Source: an uncultured Gemmatimonadales bacterium (lineage in GTDB: Bacteria > Gemmatimonadota > Gemmatimonadetes > Longimicrobiales > Gaopeijiaceae). Taken from it: a DNA stretch of 64,000 nucleotides. Below are positions 3,270-25,973 of the stretch, piece by piece. The number at the start of each line of letters is the position of its first letter. Within the stretch, counting starts at the first letter, position 1. The stretch covers positions 3,552,001-3,616,000 of the forward strand of contig CAWELD010000003.1 of NCBI GenBank assembly GCA_963809895.1, given 5' to 3'. Position numbers and translations under genes: made by a program. The notes under the pieces are model-generated. The model worked only from the letters and a program-made list of their open reading frames with translations, did no database searches and was not told the origin of the DNA.

Positions 3270-5855
3270 CTACTCGGCGCGCAATGCGGACACGGGATCC
3301 ACGGAGGCCGCGCCTCTCGCCGGCAGCGACGACGACACCAGCACCATGGCCAGGAGCGCCACGGGGACGGCCACGAGCACCGTGGGGTCGGTGGGCTCCA
3401 CCTGGTAGAGGAGCTCCTGGAGGCGTGGACCCACCAACAGCGTCACGCCCAGTCCGACGCCCACCCCCCAAGAGCCCATGCCCAGGGCGCCCAGGACCAC
3501 GCGTTGCACCACGCGGCCCCGGTCCGCTCCCAGCGCCATGCGGATGCCGATCTCGCGGCGTTGCTGGTCCACCATGCTGGCGACCATTCCGTAGACGCCG
3601 GCCAGCGCCAGGAGAAGCGCCACCCCCGCGAATCCCCCCAACAGCCCCGTCTGGAATCGCCGCGCCGCCGTGGACGCCCTGATCTGGCCCGGATACGTAG
3701 CCAGATCCGCCAGCAGCTGCTCGGGATCGGCCTCCTGGATCGCGGAGCGCAGGGCGGCGGACGGAGGGGCCGGCGCCGTGGAGCGAACCGCCAGCGAGAG
3801 CGCTGTGGGTCCCCGGGATTGCCGCAGGGTCAGATAGAATCCGGGGCCGGCCTCACTGGCGAGCGAGAAGTCCCGGACGTCACCCACGACGCCGATGATC
3901 TCCACGGGCTCGACGTCGCCGAGGTCGACCATCATGCGGTGACCCACCGGGTTCTCTCCCTGGTAGAAGCGCTCCACCAGCGCCTGGTTCACCACCATGC
4001 GCAGGGGGGCGCGCCCGTCGTCGGACCGGTCGAACCCCCGGCCCCGCAGCACGGGGATGCGCAGGGTGTTGAAGTAGTCGTCGGACACCACGCGCACCTG
4101 GGCGGTGCGACGGCCGTCGCTGACCTGAGCGGGCGGGTCCTCTTCGGGATAGAGGTAGGTGTCGCCGCCGTTGCCGCTCAGGGGCAGCATGTTCGCCATG
4201 GCCACCCCGGTGACGCCGGGCAGGGCCTGGAGGCGCGTGTCGATCCGGTCCAGCATGGACATGTAGGTTTCGAGATCCGGATACCGCGACTGGGGCATGC
4301 GCAGCGTCGCGGTCCGGACCCCCGCCGGATCGAAGCCGGGGTCCACGGCGGTGAGGCGCATGAGGCTCTTGGTCAGGAGCGCGGCCGCGGTCAGCACCAC
4401 CACGGTCATGGCCACCTCGGCTCCGGCCAGGATCTTCCGGGCCCGGGGCGCGGCGGTGGTGCGGGTGCCGCTGCGGGCGCGAGCCGGCGCCCGCGCCAGG
4501 TGGAGCGCCGGAGCCAGGCCGAAGAGGATTCCCACCAGGGCGGTGATGCCCACGGCCGCGGCCAGCACCGGACCGTCGACGCTGGCGCGAGCGAGCCCGG
4601 GGAGGTTGTCGGGACCGAAGCGCACCAGGGCCCACAGGGCCAGGTGGGCGACTCCCACGCCGGCGACCCCGCCCACCGCCGCCAGGGTCAGGCTCTCGGT
4701 GAGGAGCTGGCGGACCAGGTGGCCCCGGGTCGCCCCCAGGGAGCTGCGGACGCTCATCTCCGTGGCGCGGCCGGCGGCCCGGGCCAGGAGCAGATTCGCC
4801 ACGTTGGCGCACGCCACGCCCAGGATGAGGATGGTGGCCACGAGGAAGAGGAGCACCGCGCTCTTGCCGGTGCCCACCAGCACGTCGCCCAGCGGCCGCA
4901 GCAGGGGGCGCCATTCGGTGTTCGTGTCCGGATACGACGCTTCCAGGCGTTGGGAGAGTCGGTCCAGGCGTTCCTGCACGCCGCTGACGGTCATCCCGGG
5001 GGCCAGACGGCCCACGGGCCGGAGAAAGTGGTAGCGCCGCTCCTGCCAGCCTGGAGCGCCCCAGGTGAAGGGGATCCACACCGATGCGTCGAACGGTGGC
5101 TCCAGCGACGGGGGCAGAACGCCCACCACCGTGAGCGTCAGGTCGTCCAGGTGGATCGCGGTGCCGAGAACGTCGGGGTCGCCGCCGAAGCGTCGCATCC
5201 AGAGATCGTGGCCGATCATGGCCACCCGGGGCTGCCGTCCCTCGGTCTCGTCCGGGCGGAAGCTCCTGCCCAGCGTCGGCTCGAGCTCCAGGGCCTCGAG
5301 CAGGTCGTGCGAGGCCGGCAGGAAGTCCACCTGCTCCGGCTCGCCGGTGCCCGACGTGAGGGCCGCACCGGAAGAGAACGACGTGGCGGCCAGCGTGGAA
5401 AAGCCGAGATCGGCCTCCAGGTAGTCCCGCAGGTCCGGCGGCGACACCGAGGCGAAGCCCGAGCCGTCGGGCGCGCGGCTCCCCCACATCCACACCAGGT
5501 CGGAGCCCTCGGGATAGGGCAACGGGTTCACCACCACCGCATTCACCAGGCTCACCATGGCCGTGGCCCCACCGATGCCCAGAGCCAGCATGGTGACCGC
5601 CACCAGCGTGAAGCCCGGCCGACGCCTGAGGCCCCGTAGCGCCCGTCGCAGGTCGTGCCACCGTGTACCCATTCCCCTCCCCTCCTCCCATCGAAGCATG
5701 ATGGCGTGGGGGACGATCCCCCAGACCCTGCGCCACGCGGCGGCCCGTCCCCGACGGCGCGCGGTCACCTCGAGCTCGGCCCGCCACTCCTCCAGCCATC
5801 GCGCCCGAGCGGCCGCCGGCATGATCAGGGCCGCCAGGCGCAGCAGAAGGCCCAC
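3270..5855 (-). CDS. ADOP-type duplicated MacB/FtsX ABC permease (no ATPase domain)
   Basis: LALGIG, ACANVANLLLAR, EIGIRMALGA and C-terminal PARGAASVDPVSALRAE motifs. Confidence 0.9.
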   Translation of the reverse strand: MGLLLRLAALIMPAAARARWLEEWRAELEVTARRRGRAAAWRRVWGIVPHAIMLRWEEGRGMGTRWHDLRRALRGLRRRPGFTLVAVTMLALGIGGATAMVSLVNAVVVNPLPYPEGSDLVWMWGSRAPDGSGFASVSPPDLRDYLEADLGFSTLAATSFSSGAALTSGTGEPEQVDFLPASHDLLEALELEPTLGRSFRPDETEGRQPRVAMIGHDLWMRRFGGDPDVLGTAIHLDDLTLTVVGVLPPSLEPPFDASVWIPFTWGAPGWQERRYHFLRPVGRLAPGMTVSGVQERLDRLSQRLEASYPDTNTEWRPLLRPLGDVLVGTGKSAVLLFLVATILILGVACANVANLLLARAAGRATEMSVRSSLGATRGHLVRQLLTESLTLAAVGGVAGVGVAHLALWALVRFGPDNLPGLARASVDGPVLAAAVGITALVGILFGLAPALHLARAPARARSGTRTTAAPRARKILAGAEVAMTVVVLTAAALLTKSLMRLTAVDPGFDPAGVRTATLRMPQSRYPDLETYMSMLDRIDTRLQALPGVTGVAMANMLPLSGNGGDTYLYPEEDPPAQVSDGRRTAQVRVVSDDYFNTLRIPVLRGRGFDRSDDGRAPLRMVVNQALVERFYQGENPVGHRMMVDLGDVEPVEIIGVVGDVRDFSLASEAGPGFYLTLRQSRGPTALSLAVRSTAPAPPSAALRSAIQEADPEQLLADLATYPGQIRASTAARRFQTGLLGGFAGVALLLALAGVYGMVASMVDQQRREIGIRMALGADRGRVVQRVVLGALGMGSWGVGVGLGVTLLVGPRLQELLYQVEPTDPTVLVAVPVALLAMVLVSSSLPARGAASVDPVSALRAE

Positions 5856-6887: not shown

Positions 6888-6903
6888 GACGATCAGGAGT
6901 CTC

Positions 6904-7635
6904 TCAACCCGCGACGGCCCGCTCCGACACCCGTCCGAAGCGCCGGTCGCGCGCCCGGAACTCGGCGAGCCAGCGTCCGACCTCCTCCTCGTCCACGTCG
7001 GGCCACAGCACCGGCGAGAAGACGAACTCGGCGTAGGCGCACTCCCACAGCATGAAGTCGCTCAGGCGACGCTCGCCGCTGGTGCGCACCAGCAGATCGA
7101 CGTCGGTGACGCCGCCGTCGCCGAGCGTCTCCTCCAGGGCTTCGGCCAGGACGTCGCGATCCACGGGCGCGGAGGTCTCCCGGAGGCGCTCGGCCGCGGC
7201 GGCCAGCACGTCGCGGGCGGAGTAGTCCACCGCCAGTCGGAGATGGAGGCCCTTGCCGTCCCGGGTCGCTTCTTCGGCGGCCTCGGCCGAGGCCAGCACC
7301 CTGGGTGGCAGGCGGTCGCGGCGTCCGATGAGCGACAGGCGCACCCCCTTCTCCACCAGCTCCGCGGTCTCCGTGCGCAGATGACGGAGGAAGAGCCGCA
7401 TGAGGGCGGCCACCTCGAGGCGGGGACGCTGCCAGTTGTCCGAGGAGAACGCGTAAAGCGTCAGCGTGCCGACCCCCAGCGACGGCGCCGCTTCCACCAC
7501 CTTGCGCACGGCCTTGGCCCCGGCCTGATGGCCTGCGGTGCGCGGAAGCCCCCGGGCCCGAGCCCAGCGGCCGTTGCCGTCCATGATGACGGCCAGGTGG
7601 ATGCCCTCGCGGGGCCCTTCGGGGACAGGTGTCAT
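6904..7635 (-). CDS. uppS: Undecaprenyl/decaprenyl diphosphate synthase (cis-prenyltransferase)
   Basis: IMDGNGRWA, YAFSSDNW.RP and RTSGE.RLSDF.LWECAYAE motifs. Confidence 0.92.
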   Translation of the reverse strand: MTPVPEGPREGIHLAVIMDGNGRWARARGLPRTAGHQAGAKAVRKVVEAAPSLGVGTLTLYAFSSDNWQRPRLEVAALMRLFLRHLRTETAELVEKGVRLSLIGRRDRLPPRVLASAEAAEEATRDGKGLHLRLAVDYSARDVLAAAAERLRETSAPVDRDVLAEALEETLGDGGVTDVDLLVRTSGERRLSDFMLWECAYAEFVFSPVLWPDVDEEEVGRWLAEFRARDRRFGRVSERAVAG

Positions 7636-8023
7636 CGTGGTCGCATGGCCCGGATGAGGGCCTCCATGTGATCAAGGTAGGAGCGCAGCTCGCGCCCCCC
7701 CGCTCGGTGAGCGAGTACTCGGTGCGCGGCACCCGGCCCTCGAAGCCCTTGGTGCATTCGATGTAGCCGGCCTCCTCCAGACGCCGGGCGTGGGCGCTCA
7801 GGTTGCCGTCGGTGGTGCCGAGGATCTCCTTCAGATCCGAGAAGGCCAGGGTGCCGTTCACGGCCAGGGCGCTGACGATTCCCAGCCGCACCCGTTCGTG
7901 GATGACCCGGTCCAACTCCAGGGGACCGTCGGTGCCCTCTCCCTCCACGCTCCACAGGCGCCGGGTGGCGGAGGCCACCTCGGTTCCATCGGCCCCTTCG
8001 GGCACTGCTCGTTCCTCAGCCAC
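7632..8023 (-). CDS. Winged-helix (HTH_34/ArsR-MarR-like) regulator with one frameshift in the C7 run at 7695-7701
   Basis: IHERVRLGIVSAL...TDGNLSAH...LEEAGYI in one frame and RELRSYLDHMEALI in the next; one added base restores a single ORF. Confidence 0.85.
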
Positions 8024-8624
8024 CGTACCTCCGGGCGATCACGAGTCCGAACACGAGGTGCAATCCCCCGAACCCCACGGCCATGGCCTCGCCCCCCAGG
8101 CTCGGGACCAACAGCGCCACGGCTCCCAGCCCCATGAAGGTCGCTCCCATGAGCGGGATGATGCGCACCGAGAACGCGCCGCCGCCCAGGATGGCCGTGC
8201 CGTAGAGGACCAGCCAGGTGCCCGGAAGCAGGTCCACGGCCCCGGCGCGCAGCAGAGGCAGGGTGAGCATGCCGCCGACCAGGAGCGCGGGGAGCGTGCC
8301 CAGCAGGAACTTGCGGCCCGGGCCCCGGAGGAGTGGCTCCTCGAGCCGGCGGGCCTTGTGCACGATGCCGGCCATGGCCAGGACGAAGGCCACCGCCGCC
8401 GCGGCGATCCAGGTGAGCACCCAGCGCTCGGGGCCGGCACCCCGAGCGAGCACCGCCGCCGTCAGCGCCACCAGGCCCATGACGACTCCGGCCCATCCCG
8501 AGACCGCGGTGAAGGCGGACGAACGCTCGATGGTGCGGCGGATGTACTCCAGGTCCGCCACCGCACGGTCGTGGATGGCCAGCGGCTCGTCGCGTGTGAC
8601 CCGTAACCGTCGGGCGGGGATCAT
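8016..8624 (-). CDS. Multi-pass membrane protein, hypothetical
   Basis: About 6 hydrophobic segments; DLEYIRRTIERSS start and GFGGLH end; overlaps the regulator gene. Confidence 0.8.
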   Translation of the reverse strand: MIPARRLRVTRDEPLAIHDRAVADLEYIRRTIERSSAFTAVSGWAGVVMGLVALTAAVLARGAGPERWVLTWIAAAAVAFVLAMAGIVHKARRLEEPLLRGPGRKFLLGTLPALLVGGMLTLPLLRAGAVDLLPGTWLVLYGTAILGGGAFSVRIIPLMGATFMGLGAVALLVPSLGGEAMAVGFGGLHLVFGLVIARRYGG

Positions 8625-8708
8625 GGCGCTCCGTCCGGCGCGAACGGTGCCGGGCCCCGTGGCCGAGGCGGCTCAGGCCACCCGGGATTCCTGGGAAACG
8701 AAGATTGA

Positions 8709-8771
8709 GATACCATGCTTCAACGGTATCCCCCCTCGGTTTCGCGCGTCAAGTACTTTGCGAATCAGAGT
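8709..8771 (-). promoter_or_regulatory. Promoter with two inverted repeats for the membrane protein-wHTH-uppS operon
   Basis: TTGACG (8752-8747)-N18-TACCGT (8728-8723); GATACC-N10-GGTATC at 8709-8730; ACTTTG-N5-CAGAGT at 8755-8771. Confidence 0.5.
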
Positions 8772-9733
8772 GACTCCGGGGGGACCACGACCTCCAACGC
8801 ACCGGGCAGCACCTCCACGCCGACCCGGTCGCCGGCGCTGACGAAGACGTCGCCGTCGGCCTCGAAGCGCACCGGGGCTCCGAACTCCAGGGTGAAGGAG
8901 GAGGCCGAGTGGACCTCCACCCGATCCGATTCCACGTGGCGTCCCTTGCCGGCGAGACCGAAGAGGCGCATGCGGGTGAGAGGGGGAGCGTCGCCGATGA
9001 GGCAGGCGTGGAGGAGGCCGTCACGGATGTCGGCCCCGGGTGCGATGGGGAAACCCCCGCCGAAGTAGCGGCCGTTGCTGACGGTGACCATGAGGTGCCG
9101 ACCCTGGCGCTGAAAGCCGTCGGCACCGGTGATCGCGAGCTCGATGCCGGGAAAGCGAACGAGCTGCTGGAGCGCCGTGACCTTGTACAACACCTCGCCC
9201 TTGAGAAAGCGCGCCGAAGCCGCGGCGTCGATGACGGCGATGTCGAAGCCGAACCCCACCAGGTTGAGGAAGTGACGCACGCGCGCCTCGCCGCCCTGGC
9301 CCTTGCCCGGCTCGGCGGGCGCCGACGGTGTGGTGACGCGACCCACGTCCACCCGCGCCGTGCGTCCCGACGTCAGGGCCCGCACGGCAGCCGCCGGATC
9401 GCCGTAGTCCAGCCCCAGGCTCCTGCCGAAGTCGTTACCGGTGCCCGACGGCAACACGCCGAAGCGAACGTCGGAGCGCCCCGAGGCCAGGATGCGGTCG
9501 GCGACGTGGCTCCAGGTGCCGTCTCCCCCCACGGCCACCAGGGTGTCGAAGCCCTCGGCCAGGGCGCGGTCGGTCAGGTCGTACTCGTCACCCGGGTGTG
9601 TGGTGACGCCGTGCTGGAACCCGGGAAGGTGGCGGGCCAGGAGCTCCAGATAGCGGGCGATGCGGCGCCGGCCCCGCCCCCGTCCCGACGCCGGGTTGAA
9701 GACGACGAAGGTCCGGCGGGCGGCGTCGCTCAG
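8765..9733 (-). CDS. Diacylglycerol/sphingosine/ceramide kinase family lipid kinase
   Basis: NPASG, VGGDGT, PSGTGNDF and NGRYFGGG motifs; start uncertain (CTG 9733 or GTG 9778). Confidence 0.9.
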   Translation of the reverse strand: MSDAARRTFVVFNPASGRGRGRRRIARYLELLARHLPGFQHGVTTHPGDEYDLTDRALAEGFDTLVAVGGDGTWSHVADRILASGRSDVRFGVLPSGTGNDFGRSLGLDYGDPAAAVRALTSGRTARVDVGRVTTPSAPAEPGKGQGGEARVRHFLNLVGFGFDIAVIDAAASARFLKGEVLYKVTALQQLVRFPGIELAITGADGFQRQGRHLMVTVSNGRYFGGGFPIAPGADIRDGLLHACLIGDAPPLTRMRLFGLAGKGRHVESDRVEVHSASSFTLEFGAPVRFEADGDVFVSAGDRVGVEVLPGALEVVVPPESL

Positions 9734-10392
9734 AGCTCTTCCAGCTCCTCGAAGGTCTGCATGCCCGCCTGGTACCACTCCTCCCGGAACGGATAGGAGG
9801 AGACGTCTTCGAGGGTCAGGCCCTCGGTGATCGGGTGGGGGTGCAGGATCAGCTCTCCGGCCTCCTCTTCGTGCTCCGAGTGGGGGCCGTCCATGTAGAT
9901 GTTGACCTTGAAGCGCTCGTCGCCCTCCACCGTGAAGCAGTGGTAGGGATTCACCGTGGGCACGAAGTCGTGGTCGGTGACGGTGAGCTCCAGGATGGGT
10001 GAGCCGTTCTCGCTGACCCGGACCTCCATGCGCCCGTCGGACTCCTGGAACTCGAAGTCCACGTCGGCCATGTAGTGAGGCAGGTGCCAGCGCCCGATGG
10101 CGTGCTCGCGCGACGCCTCGGTGCTGGTGGCCACCATGAACGGAAAGAAGGCCGCCTTGGGGAGGGGCTTGCCCGGCTCCACCCGGGGCGGCGTGATGAC
10201 GGCCATGACGAGCTCGTCGTAGGCCCCCACCTCGCTTTCCGTGAACTGGAAGGCCAGCACCGCCAGCACGCTCCGCGTGTGCTGCTTCTCCATGGGTTCG
10301 AGGTGTCGGGGCAGAAGCTCACGGGCGTCGGTGGTGCCCATCTCGAAGAAGGCGCCCACACAGTTCTGGAAGCCGTACCGGGTCAGGACCAT
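9730..10392 (-). CDS. Acetoacetate decarboxylase-fold protein (non-canonical active site)
   Basis: ARELLP..LEP, VGAYDELV and R...W.LP pattern; start ATG 10392 or GTG 10452. Confidence 0.7.
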   Translation of the reverse strand: MVLTRYGFQNCVGAFFEMGTTDARELLPRHLEPMEKQHTRSVLAVLAFQFTESEVGAYDELVMAVITPPRVEPGKPLPKAAFFPFMVATSTEASREHAIGRWHLPHYMADVDFEFQESDGRMEVRVSENGSPILELTVTDHDFVPTVNPYHCFTVEGDERFKVNIYMDGPHSEHEEEAGELILHPHPITEGLTLEDVSSYPFREEWYQAGMQTFEELEEL

Positions 10393-10482
10393 GGATCCGG
10401 GGATGCTGGGGTGAAGGTCGGATGCACGGCGGCGGCGGGTCGGTGCTCGCACGCCCCTTCCCGCCGCCGCACGTCGCCCGAC

Positions 10483-11844
10483 TCAGATGATGTCGTTGCG
10501 CTTCAGGACGCCGATGATGATGTCTGCGCCCCGGTCCAGCTCGTCACGAGTGTGCGCCGCGGAGATGGACATGCGGAAGCGGGACTTGTGCTTGCCCACC
10601 GCGGGATACTTCACGGGGTTGATGAAGACGCCGTCCTCGAGGAGCTGTTCGCCGAGCTCGAAGATGAGGGCGTCGTTTCGCACCATGATGGGGATCACCT
10701 GCGACTCCGAGTCGCCCACGTCGACGCCGGCGGCACGGAGCTTCGACTGCATGAACTCCACGTTCTCCCACAGGCGCGTGCGCAGCTCGGGCTCGGTATC
10801 CGCCAGGTCCAGGGCCTTGAGGAGGCCGGCCACCACCGTGGGGGCCAGGGCGCACGAGAAGAAGCGCGACCGGGAGAATCCCCGCAGGTAGTCGATGAGT
10901 TGCTTCGAGCCGGCCACGAACCCGCCCTGGCCGCCCAGGCTCTTCGAGAAGGTGCCGATGTGGATGTCCACGGCCTCGTCGAGGCCGAAGTGCTCGGCCA
11001 CGCCACGCCCGTTCGGCCCGAAGACGAAGGTGGAGTGGGCCTCGTCGACCAGGATGCGCGCGTCGTGCTTGCGGCACACCTCGACGATCTCCGGGAGCGG
11101 GCAGAGGTCGCCGTCCATGGAGTAGACGCCCTCCACGATGACCAGCTTCTTGCCCTCGAAATTCCGCAGCTTGCGGTCGAGGTCCTCCGCCTTGTTGTGG
11201 CGGAAGAAGCGGCTCTTCGCCTTGGACAGGATCATCCCGTCCACGATGGAGGCGTGGGCGTACTGGTCGGCGACGATGAGGTCGCCGGAGCGCATGAGCC
11301 CGGCGATGACCCCCACGTTGGCGCTGTAGCCCGTGGGGAACACCATGGCCGCTTCCTTGGCCTTGAAGCGGGCCACGTTCTCGGCGAGGCGCCGGTGCAG
11401 CTCCGTGGTGCCGGACAGGATCGGCGAGCCCGAGGAGCCACCCCCGTAGACGTCCACCGCGGCCTTGATCGCTTCCTTCACTTCCGGGCGATAGGACAGG
11501 CCCAGGTAGTTGTAGGAGGCGAAGTTGATGAGGCCGCGGCGCACCTCGCCGGTCTTGGTGTCCTCCACGTCGACCTGGGTCGATGGCGCCGAGTGGAGCG
11601 GCAACTCGTACTGGTAGTACCCCCGGGGATGCACCTCCGTCCACCACGCCTCGAAAGGCTCCAGGAGGGCGAAGGGATCGTCGCCGGCTCCGAAGTAGAA
11701 GTTGGTGTAGTCGTAATCCAGGGGGTCGACCTTGGCCGTGGGCAGCATCTCCGGGGCCTCACGGAGGCGGTTCTTGCCCGTGGAAACGTCGCTTTCCCTG
11801 GGGGAAGCGGTGGTCGCGCCTTGAGTTCGATCGTGATCAGCCAT
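10483..11844 (-). CDS. PLP-dependent alpha-oxoamine synthase, serine palmitoyltransferase-like
   Basis: NFASYNYLGL, TGYSANVG, HASIVDG, EGVYSMDGD, DEAHS and GTFSKSLG (PLP Lys) motifs. Confidence 0.85.
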   Translation of the reverse strand: MADHDRTQGATTASPRESDVSTGKNRLREAPEMLPTAKVDPLDYDYTNFYFGAGDDPFALLEPFEAWWTEVHPRGYYQYELPLHSAPSTQVDVEDTKTGEVRRGLINFASYNYLGLSYRPEVKEAIKAAVDVYGGGSSGSPILSGTTELHRRLAENVARFKAKEAAMVFPTGYSANVGVIAGLMRSGDLIVADQYAHASIVDGMILSKAKSRFFRHNKAEDLDRKLRNFEGKKLVIVEGVYSMDGDLCPLPEIVEVCRKHDARILVDEAHSTFVFGPNGRGVAEHFGLDEAVDIHIGTFSKSLGGQGGFVAGSKQLIDYLRGFSRSRFFSCALAPTVVAGLLKALDLADTEPELRTRLWENVEFMQSKLRAAGVDVGDSESQVIPIMVRNDALIFELGEQLLEDGVFINPVKYPAVGKHKSRFRMSISAAHTRDELDRGADIIIGVLKRNDII

Positions 11845-11914
11845 TAGCCTTCGCTCGGAGCTGAGGCGTTCTCTCGCGCCGGGGTCCCCGGTGGGGAGCC
11901 CCCCGCGTCAAGCG

Positions 11915-12685
11915 ATGGAGACTCCCGATTTGAAGATCCGCGGGACCCTGACCGTCTTCGCCGTGGGCGTATCCCTCGTCGTAGGCGACCTGATCCAGCG
12001 CACCGCGGTTGCCGGCGCGGCACGACTCCTGCCATCCCGCCGGGACCGCATCCTCGCTGCCTGGCAGCAAGGACTGGCGCGTCTCATGTTGGGCCTGGCA
12101 CGGTTCCCGGGCGGTGCACGCTTCGACGACGTTCCCCGCATTCCGGGGCGCTCCGGCGTGCTCGTCCTGATGAACCACCAGTCCCTTCTGGACATCCCGT
12201 TGGTCGTTCGGGCCCTGGCGCCGGGGTACCCCCGGATCATCACCCGGGCCCGATATGCCCGCGGGAAGCCATTAATTTCGCACATGGTGCGGCTCTATCA
12301 ATACCCCACCGTGGATCCGGGGGCAACCGCGAGGAAACAGCTGGCGCAGCTCGCCGAGGTGGGACGTTCCGCCGATGTCCCCCTGGTCATCTACCCGGAG
12401 GGGACCCGGACCCGGACCGGAGACGTGGGCCGGTTCAAGAAGGCCGGCCTGCGGGCCCTGCTCTCCGCGAGGCGCTGGGAAGTGTGGATCGTGGTCTCCG
12501 ACGGCCACTGGCAGAGCGGGCGGCTCGCGGACTTTCTGGAGAACGTTTCGACGATTCGCGCGCGCACCGCGGTCGTGGGGCCCTTCGAGTCGCCGGAGCC
12601 GGGCGACGATCTCGACGGGTTCATCGGCGACATGGCGGCGCGCATGCGCGATGCCCTCGAGGGACTCCGGGGCGACGCGGCGTGA
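11915..12685 (+). CDS. PlsC-like lysophospholipid acyltransferase
   Basis: NHQSLLD (HX4D) and YPEGTR motifs. Confidence 0.88.
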   Translation: METPDLKIRGTLTVFAVGVSLVVGDLIQRTAVAGAARLLPSRRDRILAAWQQGLARLMLGLARFPGGARFDDVPRIPGRSGVLVLMNHQSLLDIPLVVRALAPGYPRIITRARYARGKPLISHMVRLYQYPTVDPGATARKQLAQLAEVGRSADVPLVIYPEGTRTRTGDVGRFKKAGLRALLSARRWEVWIVVSDGHWQSGRLADFLENVSTIRARTAVVGPFESPEPGDDLDGFIGDMAARMRDALEGLRGDAA

Positions 12686-12695
12686 CGACGACGCG

Positions 12696-13658
12696 ATGAC
12701 GGTGCCCGAGGTGCGCGCTCCGGCGGAGGCCCATCGCCTGATCGGGCCGCTGCGCGAGGCCGGCGGCGATTCGCTGCGCGCCATCCTCCTGTTCGGGTCC
12801 CAACTCGTGCGGGCGACCCCCGACGATCACAGCGCCTGGGACGTGGTGCTGGTGGTGGACTCGTACGGGGACTTCCACCGCCGGCTGGTGTCCGGTGGTC
12901 ATCACCGGAGGCCCGCGTGGCTCCTGAGTCTGCTGGCCCGGGTGCTGCCCCCCAACATCACCGCCTTCGACCCCGGCGACGACGGGCCCCTGGCCAAGTG
13001 CGCCATCGTGTCCCGCGAGCACTTCCAGCGGGCGCTGGGACCCCGGGCGCGGGACCACTTCCTCAAGGGTCGGATGGTGCAGAAGGTGGCGGTGCCGTGG
13101 GCCCGGGACGAGGCGGCACGCGCCGAGGTGGAGGAGGCGCTGGCCGGGGCGCGACGTGGCGTGCTCTCGTGGGTCGCGCCCTACCTGGCCGGCGACTTCG
13201 ATGCCGACGCCCTGGCGCGCCGCATGCTGGAGGTGTCCTACGGCGGTGAGCTCAGGCCGGAGAGCGGTGATCGGGTCTCCCAGGTTCACGGGGCGCAGGC
13301 GGCCTTCCTGCATGGGGCGTTCCAGGACGTGCTCGACCAGGCGGCGCAAGCCGGTGAGGTAACGCCGGTGGGCGAAGGCCGTTTTCGCCTTGCCCGGGAG
13401 CCCGGCCGCTGGGAGCGCTGGCGGGTGTCGCTCTATTTCGCCCGCTCCAAGGTCCGGGCCACCGCCCGCTGGCTCAAGCACGTCGTCACCTTCAACGACT
13501 GGCTCACCTACATCCAGCGCAAGGTGGAGCGGCGACTGGGCACGACGGTGGAGATCACGCCCTGGGAGCGCCGCTTGCCGCTGCTCCTGCTGTGGCCCAA
13601 GGTCGTCCGGGTCCTGCGATTGCGCAGGGCTTCATCCCCCCCGGGAGACGACGAGTGA
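12696..13658 (+). CDS. Tam41-like (pol-beta fold) lipid cytidylyltransferase
   Basis: LLFGS...WDVVLVVD, K.AIVS, GRMVQKV and SYGGELR..GDRV align by eye with Tam41/Mmp37 motifs. Confidence 0.65.
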   Translation: MTVPEVRAPAEAHRLIGPLREAGGDSLRAILLFGSQLVRATPDDHSAWDVVLVVDSYGDFHRRLVSGGHHRRPAWLLSLLARVLPPNITAFDPGDDGPLAKCAIVSREHFQRALGPRARDHFLKGRMVQKVAVPWARDEAARAEVEEALAGARRGVLSWVAPYLAGDFDADALARRMLEVSYGGELRPESGDRVSQVHGAQAAFLHGAFQDVLDQAAQAGEVTPVGEGRFRLAREPGRWERWRVSLYFARSKVRATARWLKHVVTFNDWLTYIQRKVERRLGTTVEITPWERRLPLLLLWPKVVRVLRLRRASSPPGDDE

Positions 13659-14434
13659 GAAGCGACCTGACCGTGCTCGCGGCCGTCGTGGCGCTGGCGT
13701 TGGCATCCATGCCCGTGTACGCCGTGACCGCCCGCCGGCGCGGTCCGGACCGGCTGGAGTCGTCGGCCCGGGGGAGCTTCGTATTGGGCTCGTTCGTGCG
13801 GGAGTGGTTCTACTGGTTCCTGCGCCCGGTCGAGCGGCTGTGCCTGGCCCTGGGTCTGAGCCCGACCTTCTTCAACGTCCTGGGCGCCCTGCTCGGGGCG
13901 CTGGCCGGCTGGTTCTTCTCGGGTGGCGGCATGGTGGCGGGGGGCTGGGCGGTGTTCGGCGGTGGGGCCGCGGACGTCCTGGACGGCCGCATCGCCCGGG
14001 CTCGGGGGATGGCGGATCGCCGCGGCGCCTTCCTCGATTCCAGCCTGGACCGCTACGCCGAGGTGGGGGCCTTCGTGGGACTCGCCCTCTGGTTCCGCAC
14101 CGACCCGCGCTGGCTGCTGGCGGCGGTGGTGGCGCTCGGGGGATCCCTGTTGGTCAGCTACGCCCGCGCCCGCGGCGAGAGCGTGGGGGTGGTGTGCAAG
14201 GTGGGGGTGCTGCAGCGCGCCGAGCGGCTCCTCCTGCTGGGCTTCGGGGGATTGCTGGACCCGGCCTTCTCCTCCTGGCGCGGGCACGAGTCGCCCGGCG
14301 CGCTCATGGGACCCGTGCTGGCCTTGATCGCCGTGGGCACGCTGGCGACCTCCGTCTACCGGGTGGTGTGGATCGCCCGCCGGCTGGGTGAGGAAGAGCG
14401 GGGAGTGGGCGGGACGCCCGACGGACAGGCCTGA
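13655..14434 (+). CDS. CDP-alcohol phosphatidyltransferase (PIP-synthase/PgsA-like)
   Basis: DVLDGRIAR-x8-GAFLDSSLDR signature; SYARARGE...G..QRAERL; GTGA overlap with the upstream gene. Confidence 0.9.
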   Translation: MRSDLTVLAAVVALALASMPVYAVTARRRGPDRLESSARGSFVLGSFVREWFYWFLRPVERLCLALGLSPTFFNVLGALLGALAGWFFSGGGMVAGGWAVFGGGAADVLDGRIARARGMADRRGAFLDSSLDRYAEVGAFVGLALWFRTDPRWLLAAVVALGGSLLVSYARARGESVGVVCKVGVLQRAERLLLLGFGGLLDPAFSSWRGHESPGALMGPVLALIAVGTLATSVYRVVWIARRLGEEERGVGGTPDGQA

Positions 14435-15193: not shown

Positions 15194-15919
15194 CTACGGG
15201 CCCCCGCTCGCCACCAGGCTCGCGTTCTCGATGCGGTCCAGCTCCGGGAACTCCTCGTCGAAGTAGGCCCCGCCCCGGGCGATGGCCATGGCCTGGTAGA
15301 CCCCCTCGCCCCGGGGCGGCCCGTCGCCGTAGCCCGAGTAGAGGCTCTCCACGACTTCCATTCCCTCCACCACCTCGCCGAAGGGCGCGAAGCCCTGGTC
15401 GTCGAGGGAGCGGTTGTCACCCAGGTTCACGAACACCTGGGTGGTACGGGAGTTGGGGCCACTCCGGGAGAAGGTCACGCGCCCCCGGGTGTTGGTCTGG
15501 GTGACCGGGTCGTCCACCAGCAGACGCTTCCGCCAGACGGCGTTCACGTAGGGGTCGTCGTGAATGCCCCACTCCGCCACGAAGCCCTCCAGCACCCGAT
15601 GGAAGCGGACGCCGTCGTACCATCCCCCCTTCACCAGGTTGTAGAAGCGATCGGCACCGAGCGGCGCCCAGTCCCGGTGGACCTCGACGACGAAGGTGCC
15701 CTGGGTGGTCCGGAACCGTGCCTGGAAGGTGGGGGGCGCCGTGTCCCGGAACGCCGACACGCGCAGGAGCGGATTCTGGAGCCTGGGATCGCCGGAGGAC
15801 TGGGAGCTGTCGCTGCCGCAGGCGACGGGGGCGGCCGCGACCAGGGCGCCCACCAGCGCCACCAGGATGCGGGCGGATCGGGTCGGGCGCCGGGGGGCGC
15901 GAGGCGTGGTCGGGTTCAT
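15194..15919 (-). CDS. Cyclophilin-type peptidyl-prolyl isomerase, lipoprotein
   Basis: APLGADRFYNLV, FHRVL.GF, SRTTQVFVN and FAPFGEVVEGMEVV motifs; lipobox PVAC. Confidence 0.92.
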   Translation of the reverse strand: MNPTTPRAPRRPTRSARILVALVGALVAAAPVACGSDSSQSSGDPRLQNPLLRVSAFRDTAPPTFQARFRTTQGTFVVEVHRDWAPLGADRFYNLVKGGWYDGVRFHRVLEGFVAEWGIHDDPYVNAVWRKRLLVDDPVTQTNTRGRVTFSRSGPNSRTTQVFVNLGDNRSLDDQGFAPFGEVVEGMEVVESLYSGYGDGPPRGEGVYQAMAIARGGAYFDEEFPELDRIENASLVASGGP

Positions 15920-22933: not shown

Positions 22934-23284
22934 TCAGCCCGTGCCGCCGGCCTCCACTCCCAGGACGCGGGCCACGGCCCCTGCGTGGGCGGTCCAGCGT
23001 GCCACCTCGGCCTCGAGCTCCGCCCGTCCCTGGGGGGTCAGGCGGTAGAAGCGGGCGCGGCGGTTGTTCTCCGACACGCCCCATTCGGCGGCCAGGAGTC
23101 CGTCGCGCTCCAGGCGATGCAGCGCCGGATAGAGGGCGCCCTCCTCCACCTGGAGCACGTCGTCGGAGTCGGCCTGGATTCTCCGGGCGATGGCCAGCCC
23201 GTGGAGCGGGCCTTCGTCCGCGGCCCGCAGCACCAGGAGGTTGAGGGTACCGTAGAGTGAGCCTGAGTCGATGCGAGGCGTCAT
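22934..23284 (-). CDS. PadR regulator, acidobacterial type
   Basis: GTL.LLVL, HG.AI, VEEGALYPALHRLE and WGVSENNRRARFY motifs. Confidence 0.93.
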   Translation of the reverse strand: MTPRIDSGSLYGTLNLLVLRAADEGPLHGLAIARRIQADSDDVLQVEEGALYPALHRLERDGLLAAEWGVSENNRRARFYRLTPQGRAELEAEVARWTAHAGAVARVLGVEAGGTG

Positions 23285-23312: not shown

Positions 23313-25973
23313 TCATTCGACGCGCAGTGATTCGGCGGGCTCCACCGACGAGGCGCGCAGCGCGGGGATCGCAGCCGCCACCACGGCGACCCCCAGGAGT
23401 GCCAGGCCCGAGGCTACGTACGCCCGCGGCGCACCGGTGCCCACGCCGAAGAGCAGATCCCCCAGACCCCGGGTGAGTACGCGGGCGAGGAGCAGTCCGG
23501 CCAGCAATCCCACCGCGACCAGGCCGGCGCCCTGACGGATCACCATGCGGCGCACGGATGCCCGATCCGCCCCCAGCGCCAGACGGATGCCGAGCTCCCG
23601 GGTGCGGCGCGCCACGGTGTAGCTCAGCAGCCCGTAGACGCCGAGCCCGGCCAGGATCAGCGCCATGCTGGCGAAGACGCCGAGGGTGAGCGTGGCCAGT
23701 CGTTCACGCTGCGTCGCCCGGGCCAGCGTGGCATCCATGGTGGTGACGTCGTAGAGCGCCAGGCGCGAGTCGTAGGACCAGATCGCCCGCCGCACCGCCG
23801 GCGCCATCTCCAGGGGAGCGCCTCGTGTGCGCACCAGCACCGTGAGGGGGCCGCCGGCCGGGGGCGTCTGGAGGAGGCTCGTGTAGAAGGTCGGCGGCGC
23901 GTCGGCCCGCAGGCCCTGGACGTGCTCGTCGGCCACGATCCCCACGATCTCGCGGAAGCCCGTGCCCCAGAAGCCCAGGTGGGATCCCAGGGCGTCGCCG
24001 TCGGGGAAGTAGCGCTGCGCGGCGGTGGCGTTGAGGACCACCACGCCAGGCTGATCGACTCCTTCATCTGCGCGGGGCAGGCGTCCCTGGAGGAGCTCCA
24101 CGCCGGCCACCCCGAAGTAGCCCGGCGTGACCATGCGCGTGGTCATCTCGCCTTGCTCGGGATCCGGAGGGCGGCCTTCGATGGAGAAGGAATTGGTGAA
24201 TCCGGGGTCCAGGGGATGATTGCTGGCGAGCGCCACCGACTCCACCCCGGGCAGGTCCCCGACCCGGGCCAGGATCTCGCGCTCCAACTCCAGCCGCTCG
24301 TCCAGGTGCGGATAGACGCTGAAGTCCACCGGATAGCGGTCCGTGGGCGGGAAGAAGGTGAGCCGCAGGGTGTGGTCGGTGCGGAAACCGGGATCGACGT
24401 GATTGAGATTGCGGAGCGTCGTACCCAGGAGCACGGCGCCCACCAGGAGCAGCGCGGCGAGCCCGGCCTGCGCCATCACCAGCAAGCGACGCAGAGTGGC
24501 CCCGGAACGGCCGCCGGAGCCGTCGCCCCGCCCCTGGGAAAGAGCCCTCTGGAGATCCAGACGCAGCGCACTGACCGTGGGTGCGATGCCGAAGACCAGG
24601 GCCAATCCCACTACCAGCGTCAGCGCGAAGAACAGGACGCGCGCGTCGAGCCCGGGGGTGCCCAGGACCAGGAGCTGCGGGGGCACCATGACCAGCGTGA
24701 CGCGGAGCGCGACCCATGCCACCCCCACTCCCAGGACGCCGGCGCCTACGGACAGCAGCAGCGTCACCGCCAGGTTCCGGCGCGCCGTGCGCAGGCCCCC
24801 GGCTCCCAGCGCCGTGTGAACCGCCGATTCCCGGGACCGAGCCGTGGCCCGCGCCAGGAGGAGGTTGGTGACGTTCAGGGTGGCGAGGAGGAGGAGCACG
24901 CCGACCGAGCCGAACAGGGCCCACAGCATCCGGCTCACGTCGCCCCGCAGGAAGTCCGTGGCGGGCTCCACGAAGGCGCCCCGATTGGCGTTGGCCGGGA
25001 CCTCCTGCTCCAGGGCGGCGGCGATGCGGGTCATCTCGGAACGGGCCCGCTCCAGGGGAACCCCGTCGCCGAGCCTCCCCACGACGGTGGCGTAGTGGGG
25101 ATTCCTGGTAGCCTGGGCGGCGGTCATGCGAAACGGGGTCCACACATCGGTGCTTCCGCCCATGACCACGTCGGCTCCGGCAGGGAGCACGCCCACGATC
25201 TGCGTGGGATGCCCGTCCAGGGCCACCGTCTCACCCAGGACGTCGGGGCTGGCGTCGAACGCGCTACGCCAGAAGCGGTTCGTCAGGACCGCCACCGGAG
25301 AGCCGCCCCCTTCGGTTTCCTCGGGGGTGATGAAACGTCCCAAGACGGGCTCCACTCCGAGCACCGACGCCAGGTCGTGGTGGGCCGTGACGACGTTGAC
25401 GTGGAGGGGCTCGGCGTTGCCGCGCAGCAGGCTCGCCGAGTACGTGCCCCACATGCTCAGTCCGGCGAAGGAGCGGGACCGGTCGCGGAAGTCGTAGAAG
25501 TCGGCGGTGCCCGCCTGCTCGCGCAGCGTGCCGGTGGCCCGGTCGTTCTGCCACACGTAGACCAGCCGTGACGCGTCCGGATAGGGCAACGGGCGCAGGA
25601 GCACGCCGTCCACCAGGCTGAAGAGCGCCGTGGCGAAGCCGATGCCCAGCCCCAGCGTGAGGATCACCAGGGCGGCCAGCCCCCGGTCTCGCACCAGCTC
25701 GCGCACGGCGAGCCGGATGTCGTGTCGCAACGCCTCCATTCCTCCCCTCCTCGTCTCCCGGCGGGCCGCCTCGCGGCGGACCCGCACACACTGGTCGGCG
25801 ATACGCTCGTGGTTGCCGAAGCGTCGGCGGGCCTCTCGGCGCGCCTCCGGCTCGCTCCATCCCCGCTCCACCAGCTCACGGACCCGGCCTTCCAGATGGA
25901 AGTCCAGCTCCTCGCGAACCTCCCGGTCCAGGGACGTCGCGGAGAAGAGGCGCCGTGGAGGCGGTGCATCCAT
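23313..25973 (-). CDS. ADOP-type duplicated permease with 'permease prefix' N-terminal domain
   Basis: EVREELDFHLE...EARREARRRFG prefix; ELGIRLALGA; duplicated MacB/FtsX architecture. Confidence 0.9.
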   Translation of the reverse strand: MDAPPPRRLFSATSLDREVREELDFHLEGRVRELVERGWSEPEARREARRRFGNHERIADQCVRVRREAARRETRRGGMEALRHDIRLAVRELVRDRGLAALVILTLGLGIGFATALFSLVDGVLLRPLPYPDASRLVYVWQNDRATGTLREQAGTADFYDFRDRSRSFAGLSMWGTYSASLLRGNAEPLHVNVVTAHHDLASVLGVEPVLGRFITPEETEGGGSPVAVLTNRFWRSAFDASPDVLGETVALDGHPTQIVGVLPAGADVVMGGSTDVWTPFRMTAAQATRNPHYATVVGRLGDGVPLERARSEMTRIAAALEQEVPANANRGAFVEPATDFLRGDVSRMLWALFGSVGVLLLLATLNVTNLLLARATARSRESAVHTALGAGGLRTARRNLAVTLLLSVGAGVLGVGVAWVALRVTLVMVPPQLLVLGTPGLDARVLFFALTLVVGLALVFGIAPTVSALRLDLQRALSQGRGDGSGGRSGATLRRLLVMAQAGLAALLLVGAVLLGTTLRNLNHVDPGFRTDHTLRLTFFPPTDRYPVDFSVYPHLDERLELEREILARVGDLPGVESVALASNHPLDPGFTNSFSIEGRPPDPEQGEMTTRMVTPGYFGVAGVELLQGRLPRADEGVDQPGVVVLNATAAQRYFPDGDALGSHLGFWGTGFREIVGIVADEHVQGLRADAPPTFYTSLLQTPPAGGPLTVLVRTRGAPLEMAPAVRRAIWSYDSRLALYDVTTMDATLARATQRERLATLTLGVFASMALILAGLGVYGLLSYTVARRTRELGIRLALGADRASVRRMVIRQGAGLVAVGLLAGLLLARVLTRGLGDLLFGVGTGAPRAYVASGLALLGVAVVAAAIPALRASSVEPAESLRVE

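Follow-up and report, generated by a model that had tools for sequence, protein, structure and literature searches.

The closest described relatives of the locus analysed here are the cpg genes of Caulobacter and the inositol lipid cluster of Bacteroides thetaiotaomicron. In the available parts of the Caulobacter papers, cpgB encodes a ceramide kinase, cpgA carries a PgsA domain and adds a second phosphoglycerate, and cpgC, described as having 'no conserved domains', is needed for the conversion of ceramide-1-phosphate to ceramide phosphoglycerate (PMC9393093, PMC10331486). According to the accessible text of a 2025 study, CpgD makes CDP-glycerate, of which CpgA is the proposed user, and CpgC acts 'through a yet unidentified mechanism' (PMC12275187). 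For Bacteroides, the accessible portion of the source describes a cluster of a myo-inositol-phosphate synthase (MIPS; BT_1526), a phosphatidylinositol-phosphate (PIP) synthase (BT_1523), a PIP phosphatase (BT_1525) and an inositol-phosphoceramide synthase (BT_1522); inositol phosphate is first placed onto diacylglycerol, and ceramide later receives the head group of phosphatidylinositol through an AUR1-like enzyme (PMC9246714). Here, we analyse six lipid-related genes at positions 8765–14434 of a 64 000-nucleotide stretch (the window) of contig CAWELD010000003.1 from an uncultured Gemmatimonadales bacterium of the phylum Gemmatimonadota. They constitute a strongly conserved cluster that most likely serves one pathway. 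Its transferase replaces the usual MIPS-linked PIP synthase of the phylum while MIPS is kept.

The six genes form two divergent operons, as the initial annotation had described. On the minus strand, an alpha-oxoamine synthase (AOS; 10483–11844; Pfam Aminotran_1_2, E = 1.7e-58) is followed by a beta-cone protein of the acetoacetate decarboxylase (ADC) fold (9730–10392; PF06314, 38.4 bits against a cut-off of 29.8) and by a lipid kinase of the YegS/Rv2252/BmrU family with the DAGK fold (8765–9778; DAGK_cat and YegS_C domains). The plus strand carries a PlsC/LPLAT-type acyltransferase that starts at 11891 (GTG) or 11915 (ATG) and ends at 12685 (PF01553, 56 bits against a cut-off of 23), a Tam41-fold nucleotidyltransferase of 320 amino acids (12696–13658; identified from its AlphaFold model and Foldseek) and a CDP-alcohol phosphotransferase of the PIP-synthase type (13655–14434; PF01066). 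The divergent intergenic region, as read from the sequence, spans 11845–11914, and the gap is 46 bp to the GTG or 70 bp to the ATG, compared with the ∼70 bp given originally. The kinase and ADC-fold genes overlap by 49 nt and the Tam41-like and transferase genes by 4 nt. The acyltransferase and Tam41-like genes are 10 nt apart, and the spacing between the AOS and ADC-fold genes is 90 nt if the latter begins at the ATG common to its homologues.

Like cpgA, cpgB and cpgC (with cpgD) beside spt, the cluster links a DAGK-fold kinase, a Tam41-like protein (with CpgC as the putative counterpart) and a transferase of the CDP-alcohol type to a backbone oxoamine synthase, and to judge from the accessible parts of the Caulobacter papers the parallel that had been drawn with the cpg genes is borne out for this trio (PMC9393093, PMC12275187). 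In both systems, a lipid without glycerol would receive an anionic phospholipid head group, which on the window side is predicted and on the Caulobacter side is taken from the same partial texts (PMC9393093, PMC10331486, PMC12275187). No named Caulobacter sequence entered the comparison, and the label 'CpgC-like' for the alphaproteobacterial proteins used in its place follows from their context. In two of the five Spt-bearing alphaproteobacterial genomes searched, a Tam41-like homologue lies directly after a DAGK-fold kinase, and hhalign matches the Tam41-like family of the window to such a protein, for which a CpgC identity is suggested by its neighbours (98%, E = 1.7e-13, 28% identity over 276 columns). 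Compared with the cpg genes, the window kinase appears to belong to another subfamily, the transferase is of the PIP-synthase type and not of the PgsA type, the AOS lies outside the Spt clade, and a PlsC-like acyltransferase and an ADC-fold protein are present in addition. Unlike in Caulobacter, no CpgD-type cytidylyltransferase, bCerS, CerR or ACP is found in the window cluster.

The resemblance to Bacteroides lies in the combination of a PIP-synthase-type transferase with MIPS; from the accessible portion of the source, Bacteroides also makes a long-chain base, and its end product is an inositol phospho-sphingolipid (PMC9246714). In contrast to Bacteroides, the window cluster contains neither an AUR1/PAP2-like gene nor a phosphatase gene. 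The kinase and the Tam41-fold enzyme stand beside the transferase in place of an AUR1-like gene, which suggests that the lipid itself is directly activated with CDP.

The conservation of the cluster was followed through its Tam41-like gene, for which a scan of one genome per species gave 192 relatives. Eighty loci were fetched and their contents were read by tblastn with the six window proteins; 64 of these have room on both sides. Nearly all come from metagenome-assembled genomes (MAGs) of Gemmatimonadota, in keeping with the origin of the window, and a small number bear the labels Gammaproteobacteria, Vicinamibacteria, Acidimicrobiia, Eisenbacteria or Solibacteraceae. All six genes occur in the order of the window in 27 of the 64 loci. 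Another 28 have the kinase, ADC-fold, PlsC-like, Tam41-like and transferase genes without the AOS, four have the AOS and lack the transferase alone, and five are partial. The five-gene core of kinase, ADC-fold protein, PlsC-like acyltransferase, Tam41-like protein and CDP-alcohol transferase is kept in 55 of the 64 loci, the kinase is found in 68 of the 70 with room on its side and the PlsC-like gene in 78 of all 80. The arrangement recurs in the 80 fetched loci and goes far beyond chance. The synteny survey across Gemmatimonadota that had been proposed as a check therefore finds the genes to be co-conserved. The claim that the six form a single unit holds as far as a co-conserved lipid pathway is concerned and fails for physical linkage, since the AOS is unlinked in about half of the loci.

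Where the cluster lacks an AOS, an orthologue is encoded elsewhere in all five genomes tested (72–83% identity). In the three flanks read, this unlinked AOS gene is directly followed by an ADC-fold paralogue that is 44% identical to the ADC-fold protein of the window, and another ADC-fold paralogue remains with the kinase where the AOS has moved away. The AOS and an ADC-fold gene are thus a fixed pair. In two genomes, G005 (locus L093) and G001 (locus L094), the unlinked pair is bordered by an alpha/beta hydrolase and an MFS transporter on one side and by a PaaX-like regulator on the other. A gene for a HEAT-cyclophilin lies next to the pair in G005 and recalls the cyclophilin gene by the window cluster (15194–15919). 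An open reading frame (ORF) resembling short-chain dehydrogenases/reductases beside the unlinked AOS of one genome is not conserved.

The two parts of the cluster also co-occur at the level of whole genomes. Of 201 Gemmatimonadota genomes sampled, 20 have the Tam41-like gene (E ≤ 1e-88) and 20 have the AOS orthologue (E ≤ 1e-163, identity of 56% or more); the two coincide in 18, each occurs alone in two and 179 have neither. Within one genus, both genes are present in two of ten genomes and absent from the other eight. In the two genomes with the AOS only (G364 and G394), the ADC-fold gene directly follows it. The two with the Tam41-like gene only (G407 and G466, the latter marked unpublished and included in the tallies) contain neither the AOS orthologue nor the ADC-fold gene; the kinase and PlsC-like genes were not searched for there. 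The cluster is thus made up of two modules, which in most cases are found together: the first comprises the AOS and its ADC-fold partner, the second the kinase (with an ADC-fold gene), PlsC-like, Tam41-like and transferase genes.

Three loci in MAGs labelled Gammaproteobacteria, Proteobacteria or unclassified 'Bacterium MnTg04' (L020, L021 and L067) carry the AOS, ADC-fold, kinase, PlsC-like and Tam41-like genes with no CDP-alcohol transferase after the last of these. At the position of the transferase, L021 and L067 have a convergent class-V aminotransferase and a sulfotransferase; in L020 the place is taken by a convergent, unscanned ORF of matching size. These three clusters may build another head group.

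The CDP-alcohol motif D-x2-D-G-x2-A-R...G-x3-D-x3-D is intact in the transferase of the window (ADVLDGRIAR...GAFLDSSLDR) and aligns with that of the PIP synthase of PDB entry 5d92. This motif is common to actinobacterial PIP synthases and archaeal archaetidylinositol-phosphate synthases, which are the best and only family and PDB matches; the PDB matches comprise PIP synthases and DIPP synthase. Compared with these enzymes, the transferase stays below the curated NCBIfam cut-offs (archaetidylinositol-phosphate synthase NF040950, 120.4 against 180; PIP synthase NF045883, 106.9 against 170; BT1523-type NF052561, 93.4 against 350) and carries an N-terminal extension of ∼50–70 residues.

The genomic context of the transferase sets it apart from the usual PIP-synthase-type gene of the phylum. 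Such a gene is present in 195 of the 201 genomes and lies within ∼1.5 kb of MIPS in the 11 compared that lack the cluster, whereas the window transferase gene is not beside MIPS. It is the sole gene of its type in the genome of the window. Likewise, only one PIP-synthase-type gene, with a lower score, is present in 18 of the 20 cluster-bearing genomes, and it directly follows the Tam41-like gene in all five complete or near-complete genomes checked. Of the 11 cluster-free genomes in the family to which the window belongs, nine carry the usual type and two have neither a PIP synthase nor MIPS. MIPS itself is present in the genome of the window, unlinked to the cluster, in all 20 genomes with the Tam41-like gene and in 190 of the 201 overall. 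Since the transferase is of the PIP-synthase type and the only such gene in 18 of 20 genomes, and since MIPS is retained, the head group is probably inositol phosphate. That inositol-1-phosphate is the acceptor of the transferase we consider likely.

The MIPS gene of this genome (L105, G000:C3:1651376-1651714) lies among the housekeeping genes for dTMP kinase, an S41 peptidase, PrmC and Obg, with no PIP synthase beside it. A fifth CDP-alcohol transferase of 267 amino acids (L104, G000:C10:1180444-1181244) has a weak likeness to DIPP and inositol-phosphate transferases (41–44 bits). It was considered as a phylum-wide inositol transferase and rejected, as its sequence gave no match in 60 other genomes of the phylum.

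The Tam41-like protein on its own has no match to PF09139 even at E = 10 and retrieves nothing in a sequence search of the PDB, and PF09139 has no match anywhere in the genome. Among its 330 homologues, a few carry a precomputed Tam41 Pfam label, and PF09139 is found at E ≤ 1 in 19 of 32 aligned homologues (best E = 5e-7). A profile of the family aligns the LxGR and SYxGxxR stretches with Schizosaccharomyces pombe Tam41 (PDB entry 6ig2), although only at E = 0.5. The AlphaFold model (pLDDT 88.6) gives a clearer picture. Foldseek ranks five Tam41 chains first in the PDB (E = 6.7e-9 to 8.4e-7, target TM-scores 0.58–0.72), headed by a bacterial Tam41 with CTP–Mg (PDB entry 7ecd, E = 6.7e-9, TM-score 0.72) and including S. 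pombe Tam41, and aminoglycoside nucleotidyltransferases rank far behind. At the level of this predicted model the Tam41 fold, in which a nucleotidyltransferase domain is joined to a winged-helix-like domain, is confirmed, whereas membership of PF09139 at the family's own threshold is not; the original 'Tam41-like' label is thus borne out by fold, for a protein without a Pfam match of its own. The mitochondrial and bacterial Tam41 enzymes (PDB entries 6ig2, 6ig4 and 7ecd) are CDP-diacylglycerol synthases that share the overall fold and the two aligned stretches with the window protein. In contrast to these, the window protein, only 12–16% identical to them, scores below PF09139 and occurs in a genome that already has CdsA. 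The model points to a predicted CTP-dependent activator of a phosphorylated lipid.

The AOS contains the stretches AHAS, DEAHS and GTFSKS, which we take to be the pyridoxal phosphate-binding sites of the family, and the GTFSKS, SYNYLG and EGVYSM sequences read earlier are all found in its translation. Its closest relative in the PDB is the serine palmitoyltransferase (SPT) of Sphingobacterium (E = 5e-88), followed by BioF/Kbl of Thermus. The NCBIfam scores are near ties and every one is under its cut-off: 376.3 against 640 for Spt-CFB, 337.8 against 500 for Spt-Beta and 269.6 against 670 for Spt-Alpha, compared with 372 against 535 for the BioF/Kbl family, 367.8 against 426.45 for BioF, and 349.1 against 460 and 306 against 493 for Kbl.

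Trees were built from the 150 nearest AOS cluster representatives, 95 of them labelled by NCBIfam, together with six alphaproteobacterial Spt sequences above the equivalog cut-off, using quick searches with 75 rows (LG+G4) or 56 rows (a mixture model). In both, the AOS of the cluster, including the unlinked orthologue and those from other phyla, form one clade. It is nested in a starred clade of unlabelled AOS (99* with 22 rows in the 75-row tree and 100* with 19 rows in the 56-row tree) that lies apart from the Spt-alpha plus CFB-like clade and from the BioF/Kbl clade. The phylogenetic check suggested with the initial annotation has thus been made, and the AOS did not group with BioF/Kbl. Its view that the AOS is neither BioF nor Kbl is confirmed by the trees and the cut-offs. 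The 'SPT-like' label is upheld in one respect, best-hit similarity, and rests on that only, because the AOS is not in the Spt clade and reaches none of the three NCBIfam cut-offs for Spt. On sequence evidence, the AOS represents an uncharacterised lineage that is neither demonstrably Spt nor BioF/Kbl. In the nearest relatives outside the clade (51–54% identity), the AOS is fused to an AMP-binding domain and a carrier (PP-binding) domain (FAAL-ACP-AOS), which indicates long-chain acyl thioesters as substrates. Most Gemmatimonadota without the cluster, among them every one of the 96 genomes of family f4, have a different AOS, 40–46% identical to that of the window, which is absent from the genome of the window.

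The model of the ADC-fold protein (pLDDT 95) has MppR, Sbi00515 and acetoacetate decarboxylase as its best PDB folds (E = 1e-11, TM-score up to 0.73), and its 30 Atlas matches all fall in PF06314 clusters. The three structural relatives are enzymes with a Schiff-base lysine. In an alignment of 26 homologues, the ADC-fold protein has no lysine that is invariant or even 90% conserved, and therefore it is not a standard decarboxylase. A profile of the family finds no solved ADC by sequence, and the catalytic position was not mapped residue by residue.

The kinase scores 141.5 bits on TIGR00147 (cut-off 118.65) and matches DgkB (8e-20) and YegS (5e-18) in the PDB. Two Spt-bearing Alphaproteobacteria have kinases next to Tam41-like genes. 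These kinases, whose likeness to CpgB follows from context with no named CpgB compared, reach only 26–29 bits on the same model and match the window kinase with a BLASTP E value of 0.06. Because the window kinase is a member of the YegS/Rv2252/BmrU family and these kinases score so low on its model, orthology lends no support to a ceramide-kinase function. The PlsC-like protein has the H-x4-D (NHQSLLD) and EGTR (YPEGTRT) motifs, and its sole PDB match is PlsC (5kym, 2.5e-6). Its gene scores lowest among the three PF01553 genes of the genome, the two better-scoring ones lying elsewhere. The same genome carries CdsA, PgsA, a second PgsA/Cls-like gene and PssA. With housekeeping CdsA, PgsA, PssA and better PlsC genes present, the enzymes of the cluster are therefore extra, specialised copies.

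The observed gene families, folds, co-conservation and replacement of the usual PIP synthase can be assembled into one route. The AOS with its ADC-fold partner would make a long-chain amino backbone from an amino acid and a long-chain acyl thioester, the PlsC-like enzyme would attach the second acyl chain, and the YegS-type kinase would phosphorylate a free hydroxyl. The Tam41-fold enzyme would then convert CTP and the lipid phosphate to a CDP-lipid, as Tam41 does with phosphatidate, and myo-inositol-1-phosphate, supplied by the unlinked MIPS, would receive the lipid phosphate of this CDP-lipid through the PIP-synthase-type transferase. We regard it as evenly balanced whether the six genes act together in this way to build a sphingolipid-like phospholipid, with an AOS–ADC backbone that undergoes acylation and phosphorylation before the Tam41-fold enzyme activates it with CDP and inositol phosphate is attached. 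A broader reading is more tentative, and we would sooner expect it to fail than to hold: several phyla would use a Kennedy-like pathway for a non-glycerol lipid, in which a sphingolipid-like molecule derived from an amino acid is phosphorylated, CDP-activated by a Tam41 fold and joined directly to inositol phosphate, with a product that replaces phosphatidylinositol, and the same chemistry would also explain the CpgC step in Caulobacter.

Several points weigh against the six-gene route. We infer every substrate, the order of acylation and phosphorylation and the role of the ADC-fold protein. MIPS is near-universal in the phylum, and therefore its presence is not specific evidence. Given the 28 of 64 loci in which the core has no adjacent AOS and the two plus two genomes with a single module (the two with the Tam41-like gene lacking both the AOS and the ADC-fold gene), the AOS–ADC and Tam41 modules are able to work apart. 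As the AOS is outside the Spt clade and under every Spt cut-off, family membership does not support serine as its substrate or a sphingoid base as its product. The kinase family includes diacylglycerol and phosphatidylglycerol kinases, so that a glycerolipid substrate fits too. An ADC-fold protein without a conserved lysine could be a partner or substrate-handling subunit, or an enzyme of different chemistry. No reductase and no bCerS-type N-acyltransferase is found in the cluster, and no genome-wide search for them was made. The CDP-glycerate proposed for CpgA is, in the accessible text, a CDP-activated head group and not a CDP-lipid (PMC12275187). The ceramide, ceramide-1-phosphate and 'CDP-ceramide' steps of the initial annotation likewise stay inferences.

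The five-gene core might alternatively be a self-contained route to ordinary phosphatidylinositol phosphate, with a separate AOS–ADC product, such as an aminolipid or a signal molecule, that shares only its regulation. Phosphatidate would come from diacylglycerol through the kinase or from lyso-phosphatidate through the PlsC-like enzyme, CDP-diacylglycerol would be formed by the Tam41-like enzyme, as in mitochondria, and used by a transferase that is simply a PIP synthase. The kinase, above the YegS/Rv2252/BmrU cut-off and with DgkB as its best match, agrees with this, as do the PDB titles of the Tam41 entries, which name CDP-diacylglycerol synthases, and the transferase found in place of the canonical PIP synthase in 18 of 20 genomes. 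The loci without an adjacent AOS and the two genomes without an AOS orthologue or ADC-fold gene, whose kinase and PlsC-like genes were not searched for, point the same way. However, CdsA and two better PlsC genes are kept, so that a second route to CDP-diacylglycerol would have no evident use. Eighteen of the 20 genomes with the Tam41-like gene also have an AOS orthologue, which is missing in 179 of the 181 others, and an ADC-fold paralogue stays by the kinase even where the AOS has moved. On balance we judge this explanation to be unlikely.

Still less probable, in our view, is a head-group pathway of the cpg type without any CDP-lipid, in which a ceramide-like lipid is phosphorylated, the Tam41-like protein adds a small group to the lipid phosphate in the manner of CpgC and the transferase attaches a further unit taken from a small CDP-activated compound, as CpgA is proposed to do with CDP-glycerate. 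Full-length homology links the Tam41-like family to the proteins that follow a DAGK-fold kinase in Spt-bearing Alphaproteobacteria, and the accessible parts of the papers give CpgB as a kinase, CpgA as having a PgsA domain and being the proposed user of the CDP-glycerate of CpgD, and the mechanism of CpgC as unidentified (PMC9393093, PMC12275187). Nevertheless, a gene for a CpgD-like cytidylyltransferase is not in the cluster, the transferase is of the PIP-synthase and not the PgsA type and stands in for the canonical PIP synthase, the kinases are unlike (26–29 against 141.5 bits on TIGR00147; BLASTP E = 0.06), and the 'CpgC-like' label is itself derived from context. That the AOS is an ordinary BioF or Kbl placed by lipid genes through chance is barely credible. 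The BioF (368) and Kbl (349) scores come near that of Spt-CFB (376), and the annotations supplied with related clusters give 'glycine C-acetyltransferase' or 'KAPA synthase-like', but all three scores are under their cut-offs and neither tree places the AOS in the BioF/Kbl clade. The only other AOS of the genome, which is 31% identical, joins the BioF-labelled sequences instead, on long branches. None of the ORFs scanned between 1 and 26 kb is a bio or tdh gene, in agreement with the earlier reading of the neighbourhood, and the position and co-occurrence of the AOS are conserved.

If the six-gene route is correct, a CDP-activated sphingolipid-like molecule would be added to lipid biochemistry, and inositol lipids would be seen to be made without phosphatidylinositol in some soil and sediment bacteria. 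To our knowledge, an intermediate of the 'CDP-ceramide' type has never been observed in any organism. The term 'CDP-ceramide' does not occur in the literature searched, which covered few subscription journals; within the same coverage, 'oxoamine synthase' and 'acetoacetate decarboxylase' do not occur together, nothing relevant was found for Gemmatimonadota with sphingolipids or inositol lipids, and searches on Tam41 with CDP-alcohol transferases and on PIP synthase with sphingolipid clusters found no description of this gene set. The cluster places the Tam41 fold in bacteria in a predicted specialised pathway beside CdsA and delimits a lineage of oxoamine synthases, so far uncharacterised, whose fixed ADC-fold partner has no conserved lysine. 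It also offers a testable idea for the putatively Tam41-like CpgC of Caulobacter, the mechanism of which is called unidentified in the accessible text (PMC12275187). Such lipids could mark Gemmatimonadota and their relatives in environmental lipidomics.

Around the cluster, ORF lists are noisy because the G+C content of the window is 71%. A terminator-like hairpin from a pattern scan lies directly past the kinase stop codon (8707–8732, minus strand). With one such site compared with 2.1 in shuffled sequences, it is a hint from its position only. Scans over 6–16 kb and 8–15 kb, which include the divergent gap, found neither a sigma-70-like promoter nor an Rfam family. In one metatranscriptome library, contigs that are mostly at least 99% alike cover parts of the kinase gene, the ADC-fold and AOS genes, the 5′ half of the AOS gene and the gap between the AOS and PlsC-like genes, and one of them spans the divergent gap. 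Since this contig bridges two divergent operons and DNA is possible in such libraries, it is at most a weak hint that the cluster is expressed. Stretches without coverage carry no information.

Downstream of the kinase on the same strand lie a small membrane protein (8016–8624, minus strand), recognised from its hydrophobic translation of 202 amino acids with about four hydrophobic stretches and without a Pfam or NCBIfam family, and an HTH_34/ArsR-like regulator (∼7650–8023, minus strand). Both are matched by tblastn in 34 of 83 other sequences and adjoin the kinase where matches are shown; they may be a regulator–sensor pair or a lipid transporter. The ORF at 6893–8023 (minus strand) is probably two genes, as its first ∼120 residues, with the helix–turn–helix domain, look real and the remainder is rich in Arg, Gly and Pro. 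Genes for MacB/FtsX-type permeases at 3270–5855 and 23313–25973 (both minus strand) flank the wider region with no link to the cluster shown, and one of them adjoins a PadR regulator (22934–23284). The frame that overlaps the ORF at 6893–8023 (6904–7635, minus strand) encodes an undecaprenyl-diphosphate synthase (PF01255, E = 4e-72).

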